A stretch of DNA of 63,943 nt, filler included, from Folioceros fuciformis (lineage: Eukaryota), in the NCBI GenBank assembly GCA_049999805.1. It is 13 parts of 13 records of this genome, joined end to end, with 100 filler letters (N's around TTAATTAATTAA, not from the genome) between each part and the next. Parts side by side here need not be neighbours in the genome. Positions count along the whole stretch, not along the records: positions 53,653 to 57,573 come from JBNGIO010001405.1; 12 more parts are not named here. One strand, 5' to 3'. The translations under genes and the position numbers were made by a program. This document shows, one piece after another, positions 5,652 through 57,673 of the stretch (positions within the stretch are counted from its first letter, which is position 1; every line of letters starts with the position of its first letter). The notes beneath the pieces were generated by a model that was given only the letters and a program-made list of their open reading frames with translations, was not told the origin of the DNA and did not search any database.

Positions 5652-7376
5652 TCACACCTTGTACTCTTTGAAGCAAAGGAAAGTTTCTGACTTCAGTTTA
5701 ATAAAATAAATAACAGTGAAGCTTGTGTAGTCATCCACGAATGTTAAAAAGTAACACTTGCCATCGATGGATGCAGGGAACGGGCCACATAAATCACTAT
5801 GAACGAGGCCTAGGGGCCGTGTAGCCCTTGTAGCAGTCTTCGTCGAAAATGGCGAACGATGATGTTTGCCAAGTATGCAGGCCTCACAGGCTCCGAAGTT
5901 TGTGAGCTGATCCAACTTCAGGCCATCCACCATCTTTTTCCTCATACATTTTAACAATTTGTTAAAGTTCAAGTGGCCCAGGCGTAGGTGCCACAAGTAT
6001 GTGAGGGATGGTTCATTCATATGTGAAGCAGATGTAGCAGCGAGAGCTGCAGGTGCTGAAGGTTGCTTCACATCCAAGTGGTACAAGTCGTCCTTCCGGA
6101 GGGCCCCCGTAGCCATCAACGTGCCATCAGCAGTTTCCACTATGCACTTTTTGCCTCCAAAACAGATGAAGCATCCAGACTCGTCGATCTTCCTCACTGA
6201 AACCAGATTTTTGGTGAGGCCAGGCACATAGAGCACATCCGGGATTTCCAGGTATTGTGCAGGCTTCAAATTGAGCCGTATAGTGCCTTCTCCTTCAATA
6301 CGGTGAGTAGTGTCATCTCCTAAGCAAACAAATTTCTTCTCTTGTGCTTCTATGAGCTGAGTGAAATAGGCTGCGTGCGGTGTCATATGCTGAGAAGCAC
6401 CGCTGTCAATGTACCATACATGGTCAGCCTGCTGTGCATAGCAAGTGACCACTAATGCTTTGACATGTTCAGGACCTTGAAGGTTGCTGATGGTCGGAGA
6501 GACTGTATGAGTCAAGAATGCCTTGCTGTATTTGTGCATTGAGACGGCGAGGTTCCCGGAGGAGCTGCCACCGCCGTCAGCTGCGAGACGTTTTCTGCAA
6601 ACTTCCCATGTATGATTTGGGATTCCACAATATCCACAAGGTGGCTTCTTGGCAGGGTTGTGAGAAGTGGGATGTGGATGTCTGGTGGATGAGCCACGTC
6701 CTCGACCTCTGCCTCGACCGAAAGGTCGGCCTCTTCCTCTGCCTCTACCACGGTTACTAAGGTAGAGTGCCCTGTCTCCATAGTTGGTCATTGCAACAGT
6801 TGACAGCTTCTTTCGAGACTCCTCCGTAAGCATGGCAGCTATGACCCTGTTTAGGGTTAATGTGGGGACATCCTGCAGGGACTGTACCACATGAGTCCAG
6901 GACTCTGGGAGAGTGGCCAGCATGCATACCGCCACTAGTTCGTCTTCCAACGTAATGCCTACGGAGACCATTTTGGAGGACCACTGTCGGAATGCAAGTA
7001 CATGCTGATCAACGGGAGTATTCTCTGCCATTTTTAACGCCATAAAAGACTTCAATTGGTATGTTTGCAACATGTAATCCTTTCCATCATAGAGTCCTTG
7101 TAGTTGTTTCCAACAAGAGGCAGCAGAGGTGGCTCCTTGAAGTTGAAAAACATGGGAACTCTTAATGCTGTGATTTAGGATTGTTCTTGCTTCCAGATCG
7201 GCTTCTTCCCAAGCATCTCGTTCATCTTGGGGTACAGTAGGCAGAGGCTGTGGTTTAGGTACTGGTGGGTTCCCAACACCACCAACGTACTCCCACAGCT
7301 TCTTAGACATGAAGATGTCTTGCATCCTAAATTTCCAGACATTGTAATTCTCCCCGTCAAACTTGTCCCTTCGCAA
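5652..7376 (-). pseudogene. Copia Gag-Pol polyprotein (gag, zinc knuckle, aspartic protease, GAG-pre-integrase, start of rve integrase)
   Basis: FDGENYNVWKFRM (gag N-terminus), RG-rich tract, CGYCGIPNHTWEVC (CCHC), WYIDSGASQHMT (protease), LWHLRLGH…CEACILGKH (HHCC), LVHSDLCGP, FVDDYT. The same frame continues past a stop into LRTDNGGEY…TPQQNGVAE. Confidence 0.93.
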
Positions 7377-8111
7377 GTGAAAATTGTGACTTGGACCCAG
7401 AGGATTGACTCAAGGCTACTGCTTGTGTGCCTATGGCATGAATGGGCCTACGACTGTTGAACAAGGAAGAAAGTGTAGTCACAAGAGGAGTTAGTGTTGT
7501 TTAGAGTGCCAGAGACCATGATAGAAAAATCTAACCTAGCAGGTTGTGTGAGGTCATACTCAGATTCTATGTGCTGTGCGATTCTTTCAAAATAAGCAAG
7601 AAGTGCAGGGTGTGTATGTGTGCTTATGTTGACATTGAATAGGGTAACCAAGGTATGGAAGAGGAAGTGAAACAGTGAGCACTGTGAGGTTGGGAAGACA
7701 AGGACAGACTTGTGATAGGTAAGGTCTCTCATTTTTACTGGAACAAGTCTGAAATGTCAATGTGTGACCAATCATAACCATCGCATGCCTCAAAATCGTT
7801 GACCAGATTTGTTGCCATAAGCTCAAGAATAATCATGAGCCTAATCAATACTTGCTTTCTGCGATCTCCAGGGGCAAGAGATTCGTAGTGCGCGTCGTGG
7901 CAACTACGATCAATGGCCAAGTTGGCCTCGATTCTCTCAACACGCCATTGCAGCCGTAAGCACCTTTGAAGGCCTGGCATCTCCCAGTTCTTTCATGCGC
8001 CAGCCATTTCTTCTCCTCCTAGATTCGTTCTGATCGCAGTGAGTCACGCCGTACGTTATATCAGGCCGTTGAAGGATGGCAAGTAGGCGAGGTGCCCAAT
8101 GCTCTCCATTG

Positions 8112-10332: not shown

Positions 10333-12094
10333 CGGCGTCGGTGCATGCGCGTTCAGAAGAAGACTCGGTGGGGTTTCGTGGGTCTTCGCGCGCATATCCA
10401 AACCTCCATGACTGGGGGTGCTGGTCGTACGCATCTACAACACAACATGGGTCATGGCTCTGCAACAACACCATGGATGGCACTTTGGTTGGAACACGGG
10501 GCCCGACGGGGAGGATTTTCGTGAACTGGGGTTTCCACTCCACTGCAGTGCCGCACTGCACGCACCAATCGGCCTCTTGAATGCGCGCTGGAACGGAAAG
10601 CTACAACCGAAGGACACGTTCCACACACCCTTCCGACACGTACCACTTCTCGTCGTGGACGGATGTACTGTGCGTATGTGTGTAGATAACTAGTTGGGCA
10701 AACGGTGGTGCGGGTGTTCCAGGGATTTCACTCCCACGCGGTACGTACTTGTGATGGAAGCGAGAGAGTGAAAGGTCGACAGTAGCCCCGGAGACTCCCG
10801 GGACGCGAGACGGCCGTCGTGCATGATCACAGGAGGTCAAGTCCGAGTCCGCTCCGCTCCGCTAATATGCCGCATCTGAACCGTGGAAAGGTTCAAACGC
10901 GATCACCGCAACTCCACCGTGACGACAGCGAGGAGAGGACAGGAAAGGAGCGGCAAGGAGAGGAGAGCTTGCAGTGACCGTCTTCCGTCTCCACTGGAGT
11001 TCGAGAAAAAGCGGGCCGCGGGACGGAATTCAATGCCGCGCCTCGCAGTCCGCTCCTCCGCTCCGCTCCGCTCTGCTCTGCTCCGCCGCAATCGGAGCGG
11101 ACCAGCTCCAGAACCCAATCCGATCCCTGCTCCGCTGCTGGCGCGCCACCCTAACTAACCTGGCATCCATGACCTGGTCTAATCCGATCAGTCCCGCCGC
11201 CAGATTAGGTGTCCCAGCAGGCAGAGCAGGCAGGATGAGCGATGTCTTAGGAGCCTGTTATGCGGGAAAATGCGTCACCGCCACACATGGCACGCGCGCA
11301 GGCTCTCGGGTGACGCAGCATCGTTTCCGGNNNNNNNNNNNNNNNNNNNNNNNNNNNNNNNNNNNNNNNNNNNNTTAATTAATTAANNNNNNNNNNNNNN
11401 NNNNNNNNNNNNNNNNNNNNNNNNNNNNNNGAGTACAAAACGTATACAAGCTGGTACATGTGAAGTCGGCCACGTGGCGAAAAGGAGTATCCAACCCTAT
11501 CCGTGCCCCACCACTTCGTCAGTTAACATGAGGACTGACCAGTTTTTCGTTGTGCCGCCCTCGTTCCTCATCCGCTCGCTCTGGAGCTTTGCTTCTGTGA
11601 CCTGCCTGTCTACCTCCCCGATACACGCAAAGTTGCGCCATTATGTGGCACTGGCAATGCAGTTGGTGGCTGCTCAGGGTATGGGCCAGCGGTGAGTGAG
11701 TGAGTGAGAGTGATTGAGCTTTCTACTAGTATCTACCTCCTGCCTCCTCTTGGCCATTGTGTGGAGCTGCTAACAGCCTTGCCGCCTGCTCCTTCTTCCT
11801 TGACACAGTCTGTGTGCTCATGAGGTGAATCGAATGCTGGTCTATTTGTAGGGTTTGTTCGGTGGAGCGCAGTGGAGTGGAGTGCGCACTCACACTCTCT
11901 CCTGCACCGGGGGTCGGATGTATTATGACAAACATGCACAGACAATCCAGTGGTGGAAGCAGCTGCAGCCGGAGCAGCAGCAGCAGCAGCGTCTGCCAAT
12001 TTCTGCACCCCTTGCCCATGAGCACCATTCAGAGAGCAGCAGGCTGCTGCTGTTGTGCCGTCAGCTAGCTAGGTAGCTAGGTAGGTCGGTGGCC

Positions 12095-14412
12095 ATGGAG
12101 TCGAGCTGGGTTTCCGTGGATTCTCCGGGCTGCTCTTCTCACCACGTACGTGTGGGCTTTCTGAGGCTCCGCTGGTCCAATCGAGTGTCCAAGCTGATTC
12201 GCTTGACCCAGTGCACCGCATTTGGGGCCTCGGCCGGGGCCTCATGTGGGGACAGCGTCGTGGGCTCCCCACCCATGTTGGCCTCACACCTCCACCATCG
12301 GATGAACACGCAGTCCCTGGATTTCGCAGGATGTGCTGCTACCGCCTCCACCTCCTCCTACCATGTAGATGCTAGGAACAAACACACTGAAGACAGGCTG
12401 ATGTTAGCGAGGATATGTATGCGTGTGTCCGGTGTCAGTCTCCCAACCTCGTCGTCCAGGTCCAGGAGGGGAGCCCAACTGGCGAGGGGGAAATGGAGTG
12501 TCCACTTGGTGAAGAAGGGCGGGAAGCTGCATTCCATGTTAGGGAAGCAACCCAGGATGTTAACTTTGTGCCTAGGCAGTAGCAGTAGTGCTGCAGGGAA
12601 GAGCAAGTGCGACAGTGGGAATCCGCTGTGGAATGCAGCTTCTAAGGAGGAGCTGTACGGAGATAAGGTGTTGCCCAAGGTACTAGCTGAGCTTGTGCCG
12701 GTCGACACGAGTCCCGGAGTCTTCATCACTCCCTCTCTGCAGCGTCACTCTGAGAATGCCCGGGTCTTCACCAGAGATGTTGCTGAGATAGCCTCCCACC
12801 TTGCGGACCTTGGTCTCGATGAACTGGCACGTGATAAGTGCCTAGATCATGTCTCCGATGATGCCACTGCCACTGGTCTTCTCGACTTCTTAGCTACCCT
12901 GCAATCTTTGGGGCTAACACCAGCTGACATAGCCACCTTGCTGACAAAGTTTCCAGCAGGGGTGAAAGTTCGATCGGATCAGTGCAAACTGCTTGTAGCT
13001 TACCTCTCCAACTTGCAGCTTGCCCTCTCTGACATAGGCCAAATATTCTTGAGGTGCCCTTCGCTGTTACTAAGCGATGAGAGGAACATGAGGGAGATCA
13101 CAGATTTCTTCGCGTCTCTAGGTGTTCAGGACATTGCAGCAATCATTCTGGGCAGGCCTCAGGTGCTCAATCACCCAGCTGACAGAATTAAGAACATTCT
13201 GGGCGTTCTTATGGAGGCAGCTGTGCCCAAGGAGGATCTGGAAAGGGTTATTAGGAAGGCCCCCGAGCTATTCTCGGGTACCACCTTGAAAAATCTCAAG
13301 CCCAAGCTGGAGTTTCTGACGGAGGCAGGTCTCAGGGGTGGTGGCCTTGGAAAAGCCATTGCACGGCGGCCTAACATTCTCAATTACAACCTAGAGAAGA
13401 TGCGAAACACTTCTGTATACTTGCAGGGAATGCTAGGAGAGAAGGGTGTGGCAAAGCTCATCAAAAGGTATGCAGAGGTCTTGGTATTGGATCCCAGAAG
13501 AAAGATGCTTCCAGTTGTCAATTATCTTCTACACCTTGGCGTGAAGCCTGATGATTTGGGCAAGGTTATTCTCCGCCGTCCTCAGATTTTGGGGTACACC
13601 TTGAATGGAATGCAGCCCACTGTAGATTACTTTCTGACACTGGGGGTGAAGGAGAAGATGCTGGGAAAGGTGATCACGATTTCTCCCCAGGTATGTGTTT
13701 GCCAAATCTACTTCTTAGCTGCTCGACTTGATCTGGAAGCAAATCAGAGGGTCCCCGGAATGGCTCTCAAGGCTTCCAGTGCTTTTCTTTTCAGGTGCTC
13801 ACCCTGAATGTCGAAGATAAGCTCAAGCCGGTCGTTGAATTTTTCCGCTCAAACGGGTTAAGTGGAGAGAGAGATATGGAGTATGTCCTAACCCGGAATG
13901 CCCAGATATTATGCTGCAGCATCGAGCAAAACCTTCGACCCAAGTTCGAATTTCTCACGTCCTTGGGACTGGAAACGAAAGAGATAGCAAGCATGATAGT
14001 GCTGTTTCCGTCAATGTTGGGCCAGAGTATAGGAGGCTCGTTACAACCAAAGTCTTACTACCTTGTCCACGTGATGAACCGGTCGGTGCACGAGGTTGTT
14101 GATTTCCCTCAGGTAAAGGTTTGCTTGCGAGCTGCTGCTGTGTTCTCCTCCTTCATGGCACTGTGTGTGGATCTTCTACAACACGACACACAGTCGTTTC
14201 TAACTTGTTTGCTTGTGCCACAACAGTACTTTGGGTACAGCCTGGAGAAGCGCATCAAACCAAGGTATGAAAAGTTAGTTGCAAAGGGTGTAAAAGCCAG
14301 TTTAGCATCGATGCTAGCCTGCGTTGATGCCGACTTTGAGATGCGGTATGTGAGGGGAAACCCACCAAAGCGACGCCCCTACAAGTCCCGGAGGAGGGGC
14401 ATACCCCCTTAG
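12095..14412 (+). CDS. mTERF (mitochondrial transcription termination factor) family protein, organelle-targeted; 3 exons
   Basis: Exons 12095-13690, 13795-14112 and 14227-14412 with GT-AG introns. Repeated mTERF motifs (RRPNILNY, RRPQILGY, LKPVVEFF, FPQYFGYSLEKRIKPR) and a long S/R-rich transit-peptide-like N-terminus. Confidence 0.92.
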
Positions 14413-37026: not shown

Positions 37027-38778
37027 TCAGGTTTTAGCTTTAGGAGAGATGACCGGTAGACCTCCCATGAAAGGCCTCAACACCTCGGGTATTGTCACAG
37101 AGCCGTCCTCCTGTTGGAAGTTCTCAAAAATGGCTACCATCATCCTTGGGATAGCGCAGGCAGTGGCATTCAGAGTGTGAACAAATTGAGGAGATGGCAG
37201 TTTAGCTTTTGCTGGCGGTTTAGGAGCTGCGGATGACTCGGGTCTGAACCGGATGTTCAACCGTCGGCTCTGATAGTCGGTGCAGTTAGATGCACTGGAG
37301 ATCTCACCATACCGACCAAGCCCAGGCATCCAAGCCTCCACGTCAAATTTTCTGTGGGCAGGAGCGCCTAGGTCCTCAGTAGACATGTCCAAAATCTTGA
37401 AATGCAGGCCCAGAGAGGTGAAGAGTTCTTCTTCGATGGTAATGAGCTCCTCATGAAGAGCATTGCTCTCATCTGGTCTGCAAAGTGCAAACATTTCCAC
37501 CTTGCTGAACTGGTGCACTCTGTAGAGACCCCTAGTGGCAGCACCAGCAGCTCCTGCCTCTGTTCGGAAGCAGTGAGAAAAGGCAACCAGCTTCAAAGGC
37601 AGCGCAGACTCGGGCAGTATCTTGTCCATGTAGAGCCCGCCAAGAGGAACCTCTGCCGTCCCTGTAAGACAAAGATCCATGCCCTCCACAGAGTAAACCT
37701 GAGTGTTAGCACCTCGAGGCTGAAACCCGCATTTTTCAAGCACGCTAGATCTGACGAGGTCAGGTGTTGTCAGGAGCATAAAACCCTTGGCCTGAAGCTG
37801 CGACAGTGTCCAGTTGATGAGTGCCATCTCCAATAACACGGCCTCGTTCTTTAGATAGTAGAATTTGTTGCCACTCACCACCGAGGCAGCTTCAAAGTCG
37901 AACAGATCGAGAGCCAACCCCAAATCCACATGGTCCCGGACTGCAAAGTTGAACTCTCTTGGCGTCCCGACCACCTTCCTCTCAACAGCTACATCCTCCG
38001 ATCCCACAGGCACACTCGGATGCGTCATGTTCGGAATCCGCTGCCCCTCCCGCTGCAAACTATCTTCCAGCACCGCAAGCTCAGATTCCAGGCCGGCCAG
38101 CTGATCCTTCAGCTGCTTCCCTTGCTCAATCAGCTCCTCCCTCTTGGAGGCATCAAGCTTGCCCTTCATCATCTTCGCAACAGCATTCCTCTCCGCCCGC
38201 AGCCTGTCCGCCTCCAGGTTCAAGCTGCAAAACTGCTCGTAAAGCTGCACCACAAGCTCCACGTTCCCCCCGGACTTCCTGTTCCTTATATTCTCCGCAA
38301 TCTCGTCCTGCTTCTCCCGCATCCACCTGAAATCAATGCTGGCACGCCACGAGGGCCTTCCCACACTCCCTGCCTCCTCTTCCGACCCCGAGATCGCTGA
38401 GGAATCTGATTGCTCTGCCACCTGAACATCCTCCTTGTCAGACACCACAGGAAGCAGCTCCGAAGATGCACTGGCACTCCGTATCGCAGCCGAGAAGGAG
38501 CTCTCTGTCAGTATCCCCGAACTGCCTGTCAAATTCCTCTCCCCGTCTATCCTGCTACCGGCACACAAAAGCCCCATCCTGCCATGTCTCGAAAGACAAA
38601 ATCCTGTGCAGAAGCTGTAGGTGAGAGAAGAGGAGGAATTGGCCAGGGCAGATGACGGCAAAGCAGCACACGTCGACAGCACAATGCGGGACCGCAATAC
38701 AGAGGGCTGGATGGCTGATTGCAGAGCTACGGCCATGGCTGTGGATGCGCCTGGGTGCACTCTCGCCAGCGCCTTCAT
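37027..38778 (-). CDS. Seryl-tRNA synthetase, organellar (bacterial-type, OVA7-like), intronless
   Basis: Transit-like N-terminus, coiled-coil arm, [17 protein letters not shown], motif 2 [47 protein letters not shown], motif 3 [12 protein letters not shown]. First ATG at 38778. Confidence 0.97.
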
Positions 38779-39520
38779 TGCTGCAGATGCTGGAACCTCG
38801 CCTACCCTCCGTCCCACGATCACGCATTCCAGATGCAGAATCTACACATGACCGCATTAGCCGCACATGTCACTAGGCTACTGTATTTTCTTTCAAAAGC
38901 TTCTCGTATTAACCACTGTTCGACCTAATCTTTACTCAGGGCTTCCGATATTCCCTGACGACTGTGAGCGATGCATCGCTAGGGCGACAGTGGTTCTCCA
39001 TCTGTGGGGGATTTGTTAGCGTTCGTCGCCCGCAGCCTCCTCGAAGTATGTATATGTCAACAGGATAAGCTTGACGGCCGTAAAGTTTTCTTCTGTATGC
39101 TGCGCGATGCTTTCTGTTGCACTTTCGCGAACACCTAAAATTTTCTGGCTGTTGCAGAGAGCTGGTCACATCTTGCTGTGGTCCTCATCATCGAGGCGTG
39201 AAGGAATTCAAGAATTGCATAGCTGTGATCCCATGCTGCTTAACTCTTAGGTGACGATTTCATTGTATGGTCTTTTGACAGCTTACTCTGATGGTCTACA
39301 AAGGAAGTATCAGTCCTATTACAATCTGTGATGTTGAGTCTGGTACACGTGTTCTCCAGATTCCTGAGTGTTTTAGGCGTCTTAAAAGTGACTGTCGTTC
39401 TCATGGTTTTCCAGGTTGGGTTGACAGTAAGATGCACGATTCGAAGACATACCGTTTTTCTGACGTTAGTTATAGTTTTCGTGGATTCAGGAGGAGTGTA
39501 GTTCACAAGCATCAGCTGCC

Positions 39521-40039
39521 ATGGCAAACAAGGGCGCCAAGAAGAGGAAGGAGGAAAATGAAAAGCACCTTCAAATCCTCCGTTATGTCATCCTCGGATG
39601 TAACCTGGTCTACCTCATCGTGAGGTTGGGCATTTTCTATTCCAGCTTCAGGTGGAAGCACTGGGTTGGGCTGGCGTTTACCTCTGGATTGTACTACTTC
39701 ACCTACAATCAACTGTCAGGCATGGCAAAGCCAGCATTTGGAGAAAATGGAGAGCTTTTAGATGGCGGCTCTGATATGAATCTGGGAGGTCTCACTGGGT
39801 ACCTCCACGATGTTCTGTACATCACCGCTTTAGTGCAGGTGTTGTCCATAGTCTCAGACTATGTGTGGTACATCTACCTTGTCATCCCAGCTTTCGCTCT
39901 GTACAAACTTTGGCAGCTGGTGCTTCATCCCTTCATCTTTCAGGGATCGTCAGAGGCTGGAGAAGAGGATGCCAAGGCAAGAAAGCGGAGAGAGAAGTTG
40001 GAAAAGAAGGCTCAAAGGCCCAAATTTGTTAGAAGATGA
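39521..40039 (+). CDS. TMEM208: TMEM208/SND2 (DUF788) ER membrane protein, 172 aa, intronless
   Basis: MANKGAKKRKEEN, MAKPAFGENGELLDGGSDMN, YLHDVLYIT, IYLVIPAFALYKL, basic tail RKRREKLEKK. Confidence 0.93.
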   Translation: MANKGAKKRKEENEKHLQILRYVILGCNLVYLIVRLGIFYSSFRWKHWVGLAFTSGLYYFTYNQLSGMAKPAFGENGELLDGGSDMNLGGLTGYLHDVLYITALVQVLSIVSDYVWYIYLVIPAFALYKLWQLVLHPFIFQGSSEAGEEDAKARKRREKLEKKAQRPKFVRR

Positions 40040-53949: not shown

Positions 53950-56880
53950 TTAAAATGGTAGCACCTGTTGTAAGCGCTTCACCTCCTTCTTAGAAGGGGC
54001 CCACAAAAATAGACAGTACCATAAAGAGGCAGTAAGGATATGGTTGATCACCACCAGCCTACCTGCCAAGTTGAGCTCCAGCAATTGTACACTAGCCGCT
54101 TTGCGAATGAACCTGAGGTAGACGTACTTCCCAATCTCCCCATTCTCATCCACCTCTTAGAAAGGAAGCCCCAAATACTTGTGGGTAGAGCCCAGGGTCA
54201 CTCGCCTAATGTGGTTAATACACTGAGGGGGCTCCCCCTCCATGTGAAGACACATCATGCGCGTCTTGTTCCAATTCACCTTACAGCCCGAAAGTTCACC
54301 AAAGACCTTGACTTGTTGGAGCAACAATTTCAATGGGGCCTCCTCTGCCAAGGAAAAGAGGAGAGTATCATCTGCAAATGCAGAGACCCTTAGCTGTGTT
54401 CCATCTGGGTTCCGAATACCCACCACTGCCAGGTCTTGCTTGACTGCTTTGAGAAAGAAGTCAGTGACGATAATAAATAAGAGCAGAGCAAGGGGGCAAC
54501 CCTGGCATACCGACCGAGAGATGCCAAAGCGCACCGTAAAAGATCTATTAACAGACACCTTGGCATCTACGCCTTCACACAAAATGGCTATCCATCTGCA
54601 CAAGTTATTCCCGAACCCGAAACTACGCAGGCATCGCAACAGGAAGTGCCACTCAACTGAATCATATGCCTTGTAAAAGTCAAGGGAAATGAAAACGGCA
54701 GCTTTCTTTTGTACCTGGGTGTTGTACTTAGCTTCCCTTAGGAGTAGGAGGTTGTCCACGATGCACCTATTTTGAATGAACCCTCACTATTTGTGGAGTG
54801 GAACTTGCACCCAAGAACCACCAAGGGGCCACACTTCCCCTTATTATCGTTGCAGTCTTATGATTCGCTCCCAAGGGAGTGAACTAATGTCAAGGTTACC
54901 TACATCTCCCTAATCTCACCTTATCTATCAGCATATACCAAGTGCTACAGCAATAGGTCAGAAGTCTCGGTCGTGTCTTCGGCTCCTACCACAACACCAA
55001 CCCTAGCCTCAACAAAATGAGAACTCCAGCATTGTCTTCAGCCCTCATTTCCAACTCCAAGTATCAATCACTTGAGTGCTAAGAGGAGGCTCCAGCTCCA
55101 AGTCTGGCCTCCAACTCTCAGCACTTAGTGCTAGCTACCTCCGCAGATGAACGAGAACCTCAACTTCAGCTAGCTCCTCACTCCAGCTCCAACACTTCAT
55201 TCCACCACTTCAGCACTTCACTTCAGCACTTCAGTCCTTCACTTCAGCACTTCAGTCCTTCACTTTAGCACTTCACTTCACCCTCCAGCCCCTCACTTCA
55301 GCTCAACTCCTCACTTCAACACTTCCACTTCCAAAATCTGCAACTCAACCCTTCTCTTCTTCAATTTGGAACACAACAGCCTTCCCTCTTGCAGCCTTCC
55401 CATCAAGGCAGAGGTGAGGCCTAGGGCTGGGTAGCCTCCTTGGCTCATGGCCCTGCAACCTCACCTCAACTAGCATGCAAGGTGGTCAACCCTTGCGGAT
55501 CCGGCCACACGAATCTTGGTAGTCTTGGGATCCTCCACGTTCCCCTAGTGGCAAGGGAAATCAAGACCTTGGTTTAGCCTCAACCAGCTCAGCGCCCTAA
55601 GCCAGGAGTTCTGCACCCAAGGTCCAAGGAAATCACACCGTAGACAGCCCCCTCCTCAATGGCAGGTCTAGCCTATTATACTACCTTGGCCCAAACCTCC
55701 ATCTCTATCTATTAGGGTTAGCCTCAGTCAACCACCCGGTAATCTCTCTCTGACCTGAGCCGCCCCTAATTCTGACCTAAACCTAACTCTGACCTAACCC
55801 TAACTTTGACCCAAACCTAGTTCTGACCTAATAGGGGTTGTGTCCCATGGACACCACTGGGTGCCTTTACCAAAATTGACCAACCTCTCAAGACTACCAA
55901 AATGGTCAATGCCTCTCAACCCTCTCCCTCCTCTCTCAAATCATTCCATCCCTTCTCTCAGATCATTCCAGCAACCCTTCAAAGACACGTCTTGCCTCAC
56001 CATTAATCTAGCTACTACTCTAACCTAATCTTTTAACCATTTCACCACAGGGTTCACTTAGAGATTCCCAAAAAGAGAAATCCTACCATTTTTCAAGGAC
56101 CTATTCAGCATGTGGAGTCCACACTTTTCTTTCTTAATCCAATCATCAAGAAATGGAGTAATTCGGTTAGCCAATACCTTAGCAATCACCTTGTGTGTGG
56201 TAGTGAGCAAGGTAATTGGGCACCAATTGGAGATTGATAGACTAGCATCTTGCTTAGGGAGCAGGGAGATAACCCCCATATTGAACCAGCTCCCCATGCT
56301 ACCCTCCTCCCAAAACATACTAACTGCCTCCACGAATAACGGCTGCATAAATTCCCAACCCCAGAGCAGGAACTCAGGAGGGATACCATCATGCCCTAGG
56401 GATTTATCCCTCGGCATCCCCTTCAGGGCCTGGAACACCTCATCAACAGTTATCGGCTTATCCAAAGCCCTGCGTTGGTTCTCGAACACCTTAGCCGAAA
56501 GTGCACCATATGAAGAAGACCAAAGCCGTTCCCACCTTGCCATCTTCCCAACACTAGAGAAAATGCTAACAAAGAAGAGGGTAATAAGAGTTTTTAAACC
56601 TTCAAGCAATTCTTGCACTATGCCACGCGTGTCTGGGAGGGTAGGAATTCGCTTCCTAGGTCGGTTAGAGGCCACCTTGTCGAAGAAGAATTTAGAGGGG
56701 CCATCCCCCTTCCTCACCCACTTAACTTTAGCCTGCTTAAACCAGCCTCTGGCCCTGTCTTCTTCCAACTTGGCCAAGGCGCATTGCACCTCCGTTTTAC
56801 GGGCCTCTTCCGCACTAGTGAAGTCCCGACCCTCGCAGCTCCTTTGGAACCAGCCCAATTCCTCCCTAAAAAAAAACTCT
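53950..56880 (-). mobile_element. L1-type LINE reverse transcriptase (ORF2) remnant, interrupted by a solo LTR
   Basis: KSLGHDGIPPEF, NWCPITLL, KVLANRI (56858-56124), resuming as GFIQNR…SLDFYKAYDSVEW…CQGCPLA…FADD…YLGLP (54783-53950), with a stop and a frameshift. Confidence 0.93.
54792..56123. mobile_element. Solo LTR (1332 bp) inserted in the LINE
   Basis: Termini TGTGGA…TCCACA; 5-bp flanks CTATT (54787-54791) and CTTTT (56124-56128) consistent with a once-mutated TSD; removing it rejoins the RT frame. Internal CACTTCAG and CTGACCTAA minisatellites. Confidence 0.88.
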
Positions 56881-57099
56881 TGCTAATGGTAATTTTATAA
56901 TTTTAAAATTTCATCTTTAAAGTTCATGGTACAACAACTGCATATCGATTATGTGCAATCTTTGTTGCAGATATTGTTTTTGATATTTAAGTGTATTAAG
57001 AATATCATTTTTATGATTTAATATAATCTAATCTAATAAAGAGCCTACATGTCCATCGGCAATGAATAATAGATTATCGAAACAAAACCAACTTCAAGT

Positions 57100-57107
57100 C
57101 TATATAT
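57100..57107 (+). promoter_or_regulatory. Putative TATA box of the secreted DY-repeat gene
   Basis: CTATATAT about 70 nt upstream of ACAATG at 57175. Confidence 0.5.
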
Positions 57108-57174
57108 GTATGCATGGTCTCTACATTCATATCCCCCTTCTTTGGAGAAAGAGGGTCTCATTTCATTGTTTACA

Positions 57175-57573
57175 ATGATTCCAAGTTTGTGCCCATTTAT
57201 GGCGACAGTGATGCTACTTGTGATGTTATCGTTGCTTGGCACCAATCATGTTTCAGCAAGGTCGCTCAGAGGTATGATGATTTCTTGTATGTGTGTCTTG
57301 CATATTTTTATTTTAGCGCTCTTAACAAGGTAGTTTGTGTCGTTGATGTGTTTGTTCAACCATATATTTGTGGTATGATGCAGGCGAACCGAAGGGAACT
57401 CTAGACTACGTGCTTCCTGGTCCAGATCCTTCGAATCCATCCCCGCCATTGCCCCCTTTTTTACCCTCTTCAAATGCTGATTATGTCCTTCCTGGTCCAG
57501 ATCTTCCCAATCCATCCCCCCCATTGCCTCCATTTTTACCATCTGCAAACCTAGATTATGTCCTTCCTGGCCC
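57175..57573 (+). CDS. Secreted Pro-rich precursor with tandem DY-initiated 25-aa repeats (candidate sulfated-peptide precursor), 3'-truncated
   Basis: Exon 1 57175-57271 (signal peptide …MLLVMLSLLGTNHVSA|RSLR), GT-AG intron 57272-57383, exon 2 in frame: GEPKGTL-DYVLPGPDPSNPSPPLPPFLPSSNA-DYVLPGPDLPNPSPPLPPFLPSANL-DYVLPG…. Confidence 0.8.
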
Positions 57574-57673
57574 NNNNNNNNNNNNNNNNNNNNNNNNNNN
57601 NNNNNNNNNNNNNNNNNTTAATTAATTAANNNNNNNNNNNNNNNNNNNNNNNNNNNNNNNNNNNNNNNNNNNN

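Follow-up and report, generated by a model that had tools for sequence, protein, structure and literature searches.

The gene described here is best set against two groups of plant peptide precursors, those of the CIF peptides and those carrying several CLE motifs, as they are given in the parts of PMC8462819, PMC2254619 and PMC9169856 drawn on here. CIF1 is DYGNNSPSPRLERPPFKLIPN (Table 1 and supplement of PMC8462819), and the CIFs of Amborella and Picea end in DYNTYDPAPALVKPPFKLIPN and DYDSYDSSPTLVKPPFKVIQN; from these three members the canonical CIF can be written as a 21-residue peptide, DY-x4-PxPxL-xx-PPFKxIxN, and the published search pattern reads DYxxxxPxPPLxxPxPF (PMC8462819). A far looser form, mostly a DY followed three to six residues on by [D/N/S]P[S/T]P, is found in CIF3, CIF4, TWS1 and the bryophyte candidates, and the published bryophyte candidates come from loose pattern searches (PMC8462819). 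All 17 precursors in one part of the supplement carry a single DY peptide, and orthologues of TPST and of the GSO and RGI receptors are reported in bryophytes and across land plants (PMC8462819). In TWS1, cleavage before DY by the subtilase SBT1.8 depends on sulfotyrosine (PMC9169856). In rice CLE75 a single exon encodes six CLE motifs, spaced for the most part by 36 residues and in one case by 32 (PMC2254619). Here we looked at a locus at positions 57100-57573 of a 63,943-nt stretch of DNA filed under Folioceros fuciformis (assembly GCA_049999805.1; this whole stretch is called the window). It had been pointed out in an earlier reading made from the DNA alone (the sequence-only reading), in which the CIF1 peptide was quoted as Table 1 and the supplement of PMC8462819 give it. 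The locus is probably a plant gene of two exons that is restricted to one lineage, the plant being probably a non-seed plant, and would encode a secreted precursor with at least 3.3 head-to-tail units of 25 residues, each starting with Asp-Tyr (DY).

As the sequence-only reading had proposed, a TATA-like box, TATATAT, is found at 57101-57107 on the plus strand, 74 nt upstream of the ATG, its function being suggested by position only, and the start codon at 57175 stands in the context ACAATG with an A at -3. Upstream of 57175, as far as the likely transcription start, there is no in-frame ATG. By translation, exon 1 (57175-57271, plus strand) comprises the start codon, a signal-like N-terminus, the residues RSLR and the opening base of a Gly codon that the intron splits; positions 57175-57270 translate to MIPSLCPFMATVMLLVMLSLLGTNHVSARSLR, and the extra base, a G at 57271, gives phase 1. 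The hydropathy scan predicted a signal peptide of 28 residues (57175-57258, plus strand) with cleavage after VSA: the 11-residue Kyte-Doolittle means are 2.2-2.7 over residues 5-22, the hydrophobic core covers residues 8-22 with a maximum of 2.7, and the small residues V at -3 and A at -1 precede RSLR (VSA/RS). This call is a heuristic one, made from hydropathy and the -3/-1 residues, and it bears out the hydrophobic signal peptide ending in VSA that had been noticed before. Exon 1 is followed by a GT-AG intron of 112 nt (57272-57383, plus strand), which reads GAG/GTATGA at the donor and TGATGCAG/GC at the acceptor (TGCAG/GC) and contains 46% T and 11% C, as against 37% C in exon 2; the splice signals and the phase claimed for it earlier are both present in the sequence. 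Eight frame-keeping GT-AG pairs exist, and the proposed pair unites the best donor with the best acceptor; the alternative donors at 57287 and 57293 would make the product only 5-7 residues longer. Exon 2 (57384-57573, plus strand, by translation) is open at its 3' end and begins with a six-residue linker, EPKGTL, ahead of the repeat array. Because a TGA at 57344 closes its frame upstream and the frame lacks an ATG, exon 2 could be translated only after splicing. The 95 visible codons hold neither a stop nor a frameshift. Altogether, the locus is probably an unannotated, spliced-looking coding gene of two exons with a secretion signal.

The repeat array consists of unit 1, DYVLPGPDPSNPSPPLPPFLPSSNA (57404-57478), and unit 2, DYVLPGPDLPNPSPPLPPFLPSANL (57479-57553), both on the plus strand and delimited by Tandem Repeats Finder and by direct comparison, and of the first 20 bases of unit 3 (57554-57573, plus strand), where DYVLPG (57554-57571) and two further bases to 57573 can be read before the contig end cuts the unit. 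Tandem Repeats Finder gave a period of 75, 2.3 copies, 84% matches and a score of 240, in agreement with the 75-nt period and the Asp codons at 57404, 57479 and 57554 listed in the sequence-only reading. The unit has 25 residues, DYVLPGPDPSNPSPPLPPFLPSSN, and the copies run head-to-tail, separated only by the residue at position 25, which is A or L. While the window holds 2.27 units, a DNA contig of 1537 nt from run X1 matches 56897-57571 without mismatch and then continues for 83 nt, a tail that fits 57422-57504 (a 150-nt shift) with 11 mismatches and brings the array to at least about 3.35 units. Since X1 may be the sample behind the window's assembly, it lengthens the array and is not an independent confirmation; the earlier count of at least three copies stands on this tail. 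Four of the 11 mismatches are listed and, by our own assignment to unit positions, three of them are synonymous (codons of P18, F19 and L20) and one is an S>T change at the variable position 23. A contig of 185 nt from run X3, of the same sample as runs X1 and X2, lies within 57415-57573, and its listed differences are all G>A (5/5); these were rejected as allelic variants, since they look like a conversion-type (bisulfite-like) property of the library. Run X4, the only possible RNA run, gave no contig at the locus, a result that carries no information on expression. An internal half-unit repeat seen by eye, LPxxxPSN, was rejected as well, the best half-unit score being reached by 1975 of 2000 shuffles.

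Between units 1 and 2 there are 15 substitutions in 75 bases and no indel. Third codon positions of the DY frame hold 10 of the 15 differences (binomial p=0.0085), and by Nei-Gojobori counting this frame has 10 synonymous and 5 non-synonymous changes (dS 0.79, dN 0.10, dN/dS 0.12), whereas dN/dS is 0.68-2.9 in the other five frames. Since the low ratio is found in the DY frame only, this frame is or was coding, and it has clearly been under purifying selection, although the numbers are small. The view that differences between repeats are largely synonymous and reflect selection on the peptide was thus upheld. A minus-strand open reading frame (ORF) of 100 aa at 57246-57548 was rejected as a gene, with a dN/dS of 2.9. 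Amino-acid changes between the units occur only at positions 9, 10, 23 and 25, the last being the spacer, and D1, Y2, V3, P14, P17, P18, P21 and N24 are kept across synonymous changes. Asp-Tyr starts all three visible units, with D, Y and V codons that vary synonymously, and DY, PPF and the Asn preceding the next DY are retained in every visible copy.

We compared the unit with CIF, RGF and PSY peptides in alignments made by eye. Like CIF precursors, the product has a secretion signal, here a heuristic call, and its unit has the Asp-Tyr peptide start, a TPST-type site. The unit and CIF share the order of their landmarks: DY, [D/N]PSP, PxPPL, PPF and an Asn five residues after PPF (as in PPFKLIPN). 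Among the individual peptides, CIF4 shares NPSP with the unit, the putative Marchantia CIF shares PSPPL or PxPPL, and CIF1 and the Amborella and Picea CIFs have, as the unit does, PPF with an Asn exactly five residues later (PMC8462819). In Anthoceros CIF-like 1 the DY-x4-PDP spacing is the same as in the unit (PMC8462819), and 10 of 18 aligned positions are identical by eye, with one gap, six of the ten being Pro. When unit 1 was shuffled 1,000,000 times with its composition preserved, 83,231 shuffles contained DY and 34 contained DY, PxPxL, PPF within 3 residues and a terminal Asn, a figure (34/1,000,000) that overstates the significance because the features were defined post hoc, with the sequence already seen.

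Relatives were searched for with the 62-residue exon-2 product, a short and proline-rich query, which limits sensitivity. The word-indexed search gave 44 candidates among proteins of 110-2000 residues, none at E<=0.01, and one among proteins of 34-109 residues, none at E<=1; in the 5.8 billion clusters covered by this search no annotation-derived protein matched. No match was obtained with phmmer at E<=0.001 among 1.84 billion representatives, and none at E<=10 among PDB sequences; Pfam returned only Paratox at E=0.092, below its cutoff, and the ESM Atlas gave no usable match. In JGI metagenome contigs, 594 protein-pattern matches were obtained, none of which was confirmed, and the degenerate DNA pattern gave 0. 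Homology to CIF or TWS1 members was not detected by sequence search either, which is weak evidence, known CIFs being themselves barely alignable. A multi-unit relative with at least 50% identity should have shown up in these searches, and the gene is an orphan within the data searched. In the literature searched, the unit words PSPPLPPF, DYVLPGP and NPSPPLP were absent and PPFLPS occurred only in three unrelated papers. No multi-copy precursor of sulfated peptides was met in the literature listings, one of which was swamped by off-target words, and we do not claim that such a precursor is absent from print.

From our weighing of these data, a multi-copy DY-peptide precursor would be the likeliest single mechanism, with a probability of about 0.35. 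In such a precursor, the Tyr of each Asp-Tyr would be sulfated by TPST in the Golgi and some prolines (SPP, PSP) would be hydroxylated. A subtilase would then cut before each sulfated DY, as SBT1.8 does in TWS1, and trimming of the single spacer residue (A or L) would expose the C-terminal Asn. One transcript could in this way give several 24-residue DY...PPFLPSxN peptides, or shorter DY...N 11-mers, and the released peptides may be apoplastic ligands of leucine-rich repeat receptor kinases of subfamily XI, of the GSO or RGI type. In favour of this mechanism, each unit keeps what counts in DY ligands, the putative sulfation site, PPF and the C-terminal Asn, and the sole spacer position varies; the unit is long and non-periodic and lacks the classical motifs of wall proteins; and a signal-like N-terminus directly precedes the array. 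Precedents also count in its favour, namely multi-CLE arrays (PMC2254619), the sulfotyrosine-dependent cut by SBT1.8 (PMC9169856) and the TPST, GSO and RGI orthologues of bryophytes (PMC8462819). The polyprotein of sulfated ligands put forward in the sequence-only reading is a reasonable hypothesis that survives the checks made, on circumstantial support. The narrower case of a true CIF/GSO ligand, in which four or more CIF-like DY...PPFxxxxN ligands would come from one transcript and act on a GSO-type receptor of a non-seed plant, is quite unlikely.

Several points weigh against a peptide precursor. Neither of the two full units fits the published pattern DYxxxxPxPPLxxPxPF (0/2), the 21-residue canonical CIFs can be aligned by eye with the unit only through an insertion of five residues and a deletion of two, and the K and I of the CIF PPFKxIxN are absent from the unit. 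The likeness is not family-specific, since most of the matches are Pro and the unit can likewise be aligned with RGF (DYxxPxxxP) and PSY (DYxxP...NP). With these gaps, the absence of the PSY His and no link from the searches, the CIF/PSY-like membership proposed earlier is not supported. No homologue came from any search, and the conservation of DY and N is judged within one gene alone; besides, the resemblance was picked post hoc by a reader scanning very many windows. As for the architecture, one residue is all that separates neighbouring units, and conservation extends over the entire unit; this layout resembles that of a repeat protein more than that of multi-CLE precursors, in which peptides alternate with spacers. 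A pro-region is almost absent, the array starting about 13 residues after the signal peptide, and the C-terminus lies beyond the contig end, where a further domain may follow. Finally, secreted proline-rich repeat proteins far outnumber peptide polyproteins.

An unprocessed proline-rich protein, either standing alone or forming part of a larger protein, comes, when both forms are taken jointly, a little short of even odds. A stand-alone product would be secreted and remain whole in the extracellular matrix or the wall, an acidic and atypical relative of the hydroxyproline-rich glycoproteins, with DY and Asn as nothing but conserved repeat residues and Tyr possibly used for cross-linking. Like these glycoproteins, the product has a signal peptide and, immediately behind it, proline-rich tandem repeats (34% Pro, 48% P+A+S+T); the array is a perfect head-to-tail series of 75 nt in which the whole unit is conserved with no spacer stretch, the sequence searches give no tie to any peptide family, and an intact repeat protein is the commonest fate of plant genes with a signal peptide and proline repeats. 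However, the wall-protein motifs are missing. Extensins are defined by SP3-5 with YxY, proline-rich proteins (PRPs) by PPVx[KT] or KKPCPP and arabinogalactan proteins (AGPs) by dense [AST]P glycomotifs, and in the 62 residues SPPP, PPVx[KT], KKPCPP and YxY were each counted 0 times and [AST]P twice, once per unit. In contrast to these families, the unit is acidic rather than basic, 25 residues long and without internal periodicity: the 62 residues contain one basic residue against six acidic ones, and the repeats contain no basic residue. By the contiguity rules, moreover, few of the prolines stand in contexts that are usually hydroxylated. Judged by its residues, the unit departs from the definitions of extensins, PRPs and AGPs no less clearly than from the strict CIF pattern, and we consider the stand-alone protein possible though doubtful. 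The second form, an N-terminal repeat domain of a larger secreted or membrane protein (a hybrid proline-rich 8-Cys protein, a BURP-domain protein, a class I formin or a receptor kinase with a proline-rich ectodomain), is unlikely. The ORF is open at 57573 and still within the array about 81 nt further, and the repeat domains of such modular proteins evolve fast without findable homologues, in keeping with the empty searches; but positive evidence is lacking, there being no such domain on the contig and the next contig being unrelated, and these families do not typically have units that are long, acidic and non-periodic and keep DY and Asn.

Loss of function was weighed in the same way. The gene could be silent or decaying, that is, a young or relic ORF beside a retroelement whose transcription has been lost, and this would agree with the empty search of annotation-derived proteins (5.8 billion clusters), with the position of the gene, which lies 290 bp from a fragment of a long interspersed nuclear element (LINE) on a contig that is small and unplaced, and with the low CpG ratio of that contig (0.37). 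Such decay is nevertheless improbable, as the 95 visible codons are free of stops and frameshifts, the TATA box, ATG context and splice sites are intact, and the codon positions carry a clear signature of purifying selection. We regard as highly improbable a precursor of ribosomal cyclic or cross-linked peptides, whose repeated Tyr-containing cores would be substrates of a BURP-type cyclase or an enzyme like it: plant precursors of this kind are known to have repeated cores behind a signal peptide, and each unit here has one invariant Tyr, but no BURP domain or known core motif is in view and the proline-rich unit is unlike the cores of lyciumins or cyclopeptide alkaloids.

Thirteen small contigs (1.9-11.9 kb) make up the window, with 12 identical 100-nt linkers, N44-TTAATTAATTAA-N44, between them at sites within 4808-61871 (12 in the window against 0 expected in shuffles). 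The gene lies at the right end of its contig (53653-57573), and one of the 12 linker copies (57574-57673, no strand), which is not biology, cuts the array at 57573; the break inside the array that the sequence-only reading had noticed is thus an assembly artefact. Because the contigs are joined by linkers, the order of neighbouring contigs is meaningless and the sequence from 57674 on is unrelated to the gene. A search of the window for a paralogue or the missing 3' end (blastn, tblastn and regular expressions) returned only the locus itself and low-complexity proline noise, and Rfam gave no family anywhere in the window. CpG observed/expected is lowest in the gene's contig among the 13. A single-copy locus is consistent with the read depth, which is 11.5 both over the gene and over its flank. 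Upstream of the gene, a fragment of a LINE-type retroelement occupies 54157-56882 on the minus strand (RVT_1, E=2.8e-26 for 54157-54783), and the adjoining ORF of 274 codons in this region (56058-56882) had no Pfam match. Short-read contigs of runs X1 and X2 match the window from 56897 rightwards, and leftwards both differ from it. Directly left of 56897, the contigs of the two runs show the same 30-letter consensus (divergence zone 56860-56897). Given this divergence, the LINE fragment may have come to stand upstream of the gene as a polymorphic insertion, through an assembly branch caused by a repeat, or by a chimeric join.

The other contigs carry plant-type genes, namely mTERF, PPR, tubulin, TRAPPC9, TMEM208, O-fucosyltransferase and seryl-tRNA synthetase genes, and a copia element. 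Among named relatives, the mTERF ORF matched best those of Sphagnum fallax (49% identity) and Ceratodon purpureus (45%), each over about half of the query, and its best overall match had 47% identity over 94% of the query. This result agrees with a non-seed plant that has no close relative among the sequenced mosses. The early-diverging plant assumed in the sequence-only reading is therefore plausible from the moss matches, and these matches concern a gene on another contig, so that the lineage of the locus is not shown by them. Two overlapping ORFs in different frames match mTERF (12077-13807 and 13732-14412; together 12077-14412, plus strand) and may be a frameshifted or tandem mTERF gene. 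Seryl-tRNA synthetase is an uninterrupted ORF of 604 codons (37027-38841, minus strand) and TMEM208/SND2 a single ORF of 187 codons (39476-40036, plus strand), both by ORF reading. Long exons were also seen in tubulin, TRAPPC9 and mTERF. The uninterrupted ORFs and long exons hint at an intron-poor genome or at retrocopies. The copia-type gag-pol ORF (5652-7409, minus strand) contains Retrotran_gag_2, Pol_BBD, gag_pre-integrs and the start of rve.

For plants other than seed plants, the ancient receptor clades GSO and RGI have poorly defined ligands, and a secreted DY-peptide array, if it is one, would offer a concrete, synthesisable ligand for these receptors. Multi-copy precursors, a design seen with CLE and CEP, would then include sulfated peptides too, and sulfotyrosine-directed processing would have a natural test. 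If the peptides were CIF-like GSO ligands, a sulfotyrosine-guided cut before each DY would shape both ends of neighbouring peptides, and the precursor would be the first of polyprotein type for tyrosine-sulfated peptide hormones of plants and an early-land-plant CIF more convincing than the pattern-derived candidates published so far. An unprocessed protein would instead be one more orphan proline-rich repeat protein, of modest interest. In addition, the case illustrates how short spliced peptide genes on unplaced contigs are missed by annotation.

The consensus of PSY peptides has a DY N-terminus followed by a core, ...N-x-x-H-x-P. The conserved His is absent from the unit, no His being found anywhere in the repeats, and DYxxP...NP is what the unit shares with PSY1 (Table 1 of PMC8462819). 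For RGF, the DYxxPxxxP...N of the putative MpRGF can be laid by eye on the first 11 residues of the unit, a proline-driven fit; DYVLPGPDPSN and DYVLPGPDLPN are 11 residues long and end in Asn, whereas RGF has 13 residues and a P-[HPx]-x-N end. Compared with CIF, the putative peptide has 24 residues instead of 21, and while CIF precursors of about 70-140 residues carry a single peptide at the C-terminus or near it, here the predicted signal cleavage site is followed after 13 residues by an array of at least 3.35 units. The array itself has the architecture of multi-copy peptide precursors, with a 75-nt period and 84% identity and lying wholly in exon 2. It shares with the multi-CLE precursors (rice CLE75 and CLE76, wheat CLE30 and CLE31), for which several ligands were proposed, a signal peptide and a regular, near-identical array in one exon (PMC2254619). 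CLE motifs of 12-13 residues lie in periods of 29-36 residues with conserved flanks (PMC2254619), whereas the putative peptide here fills 24 of 25 residues, and the peptide class is a different one, the unit starting with DY and containing no CLE motif. Although membership in the CIF or PSY family is not established, the unit looks, by its residues, like the DY class of peptide ligands generally, and most of all like CIF.

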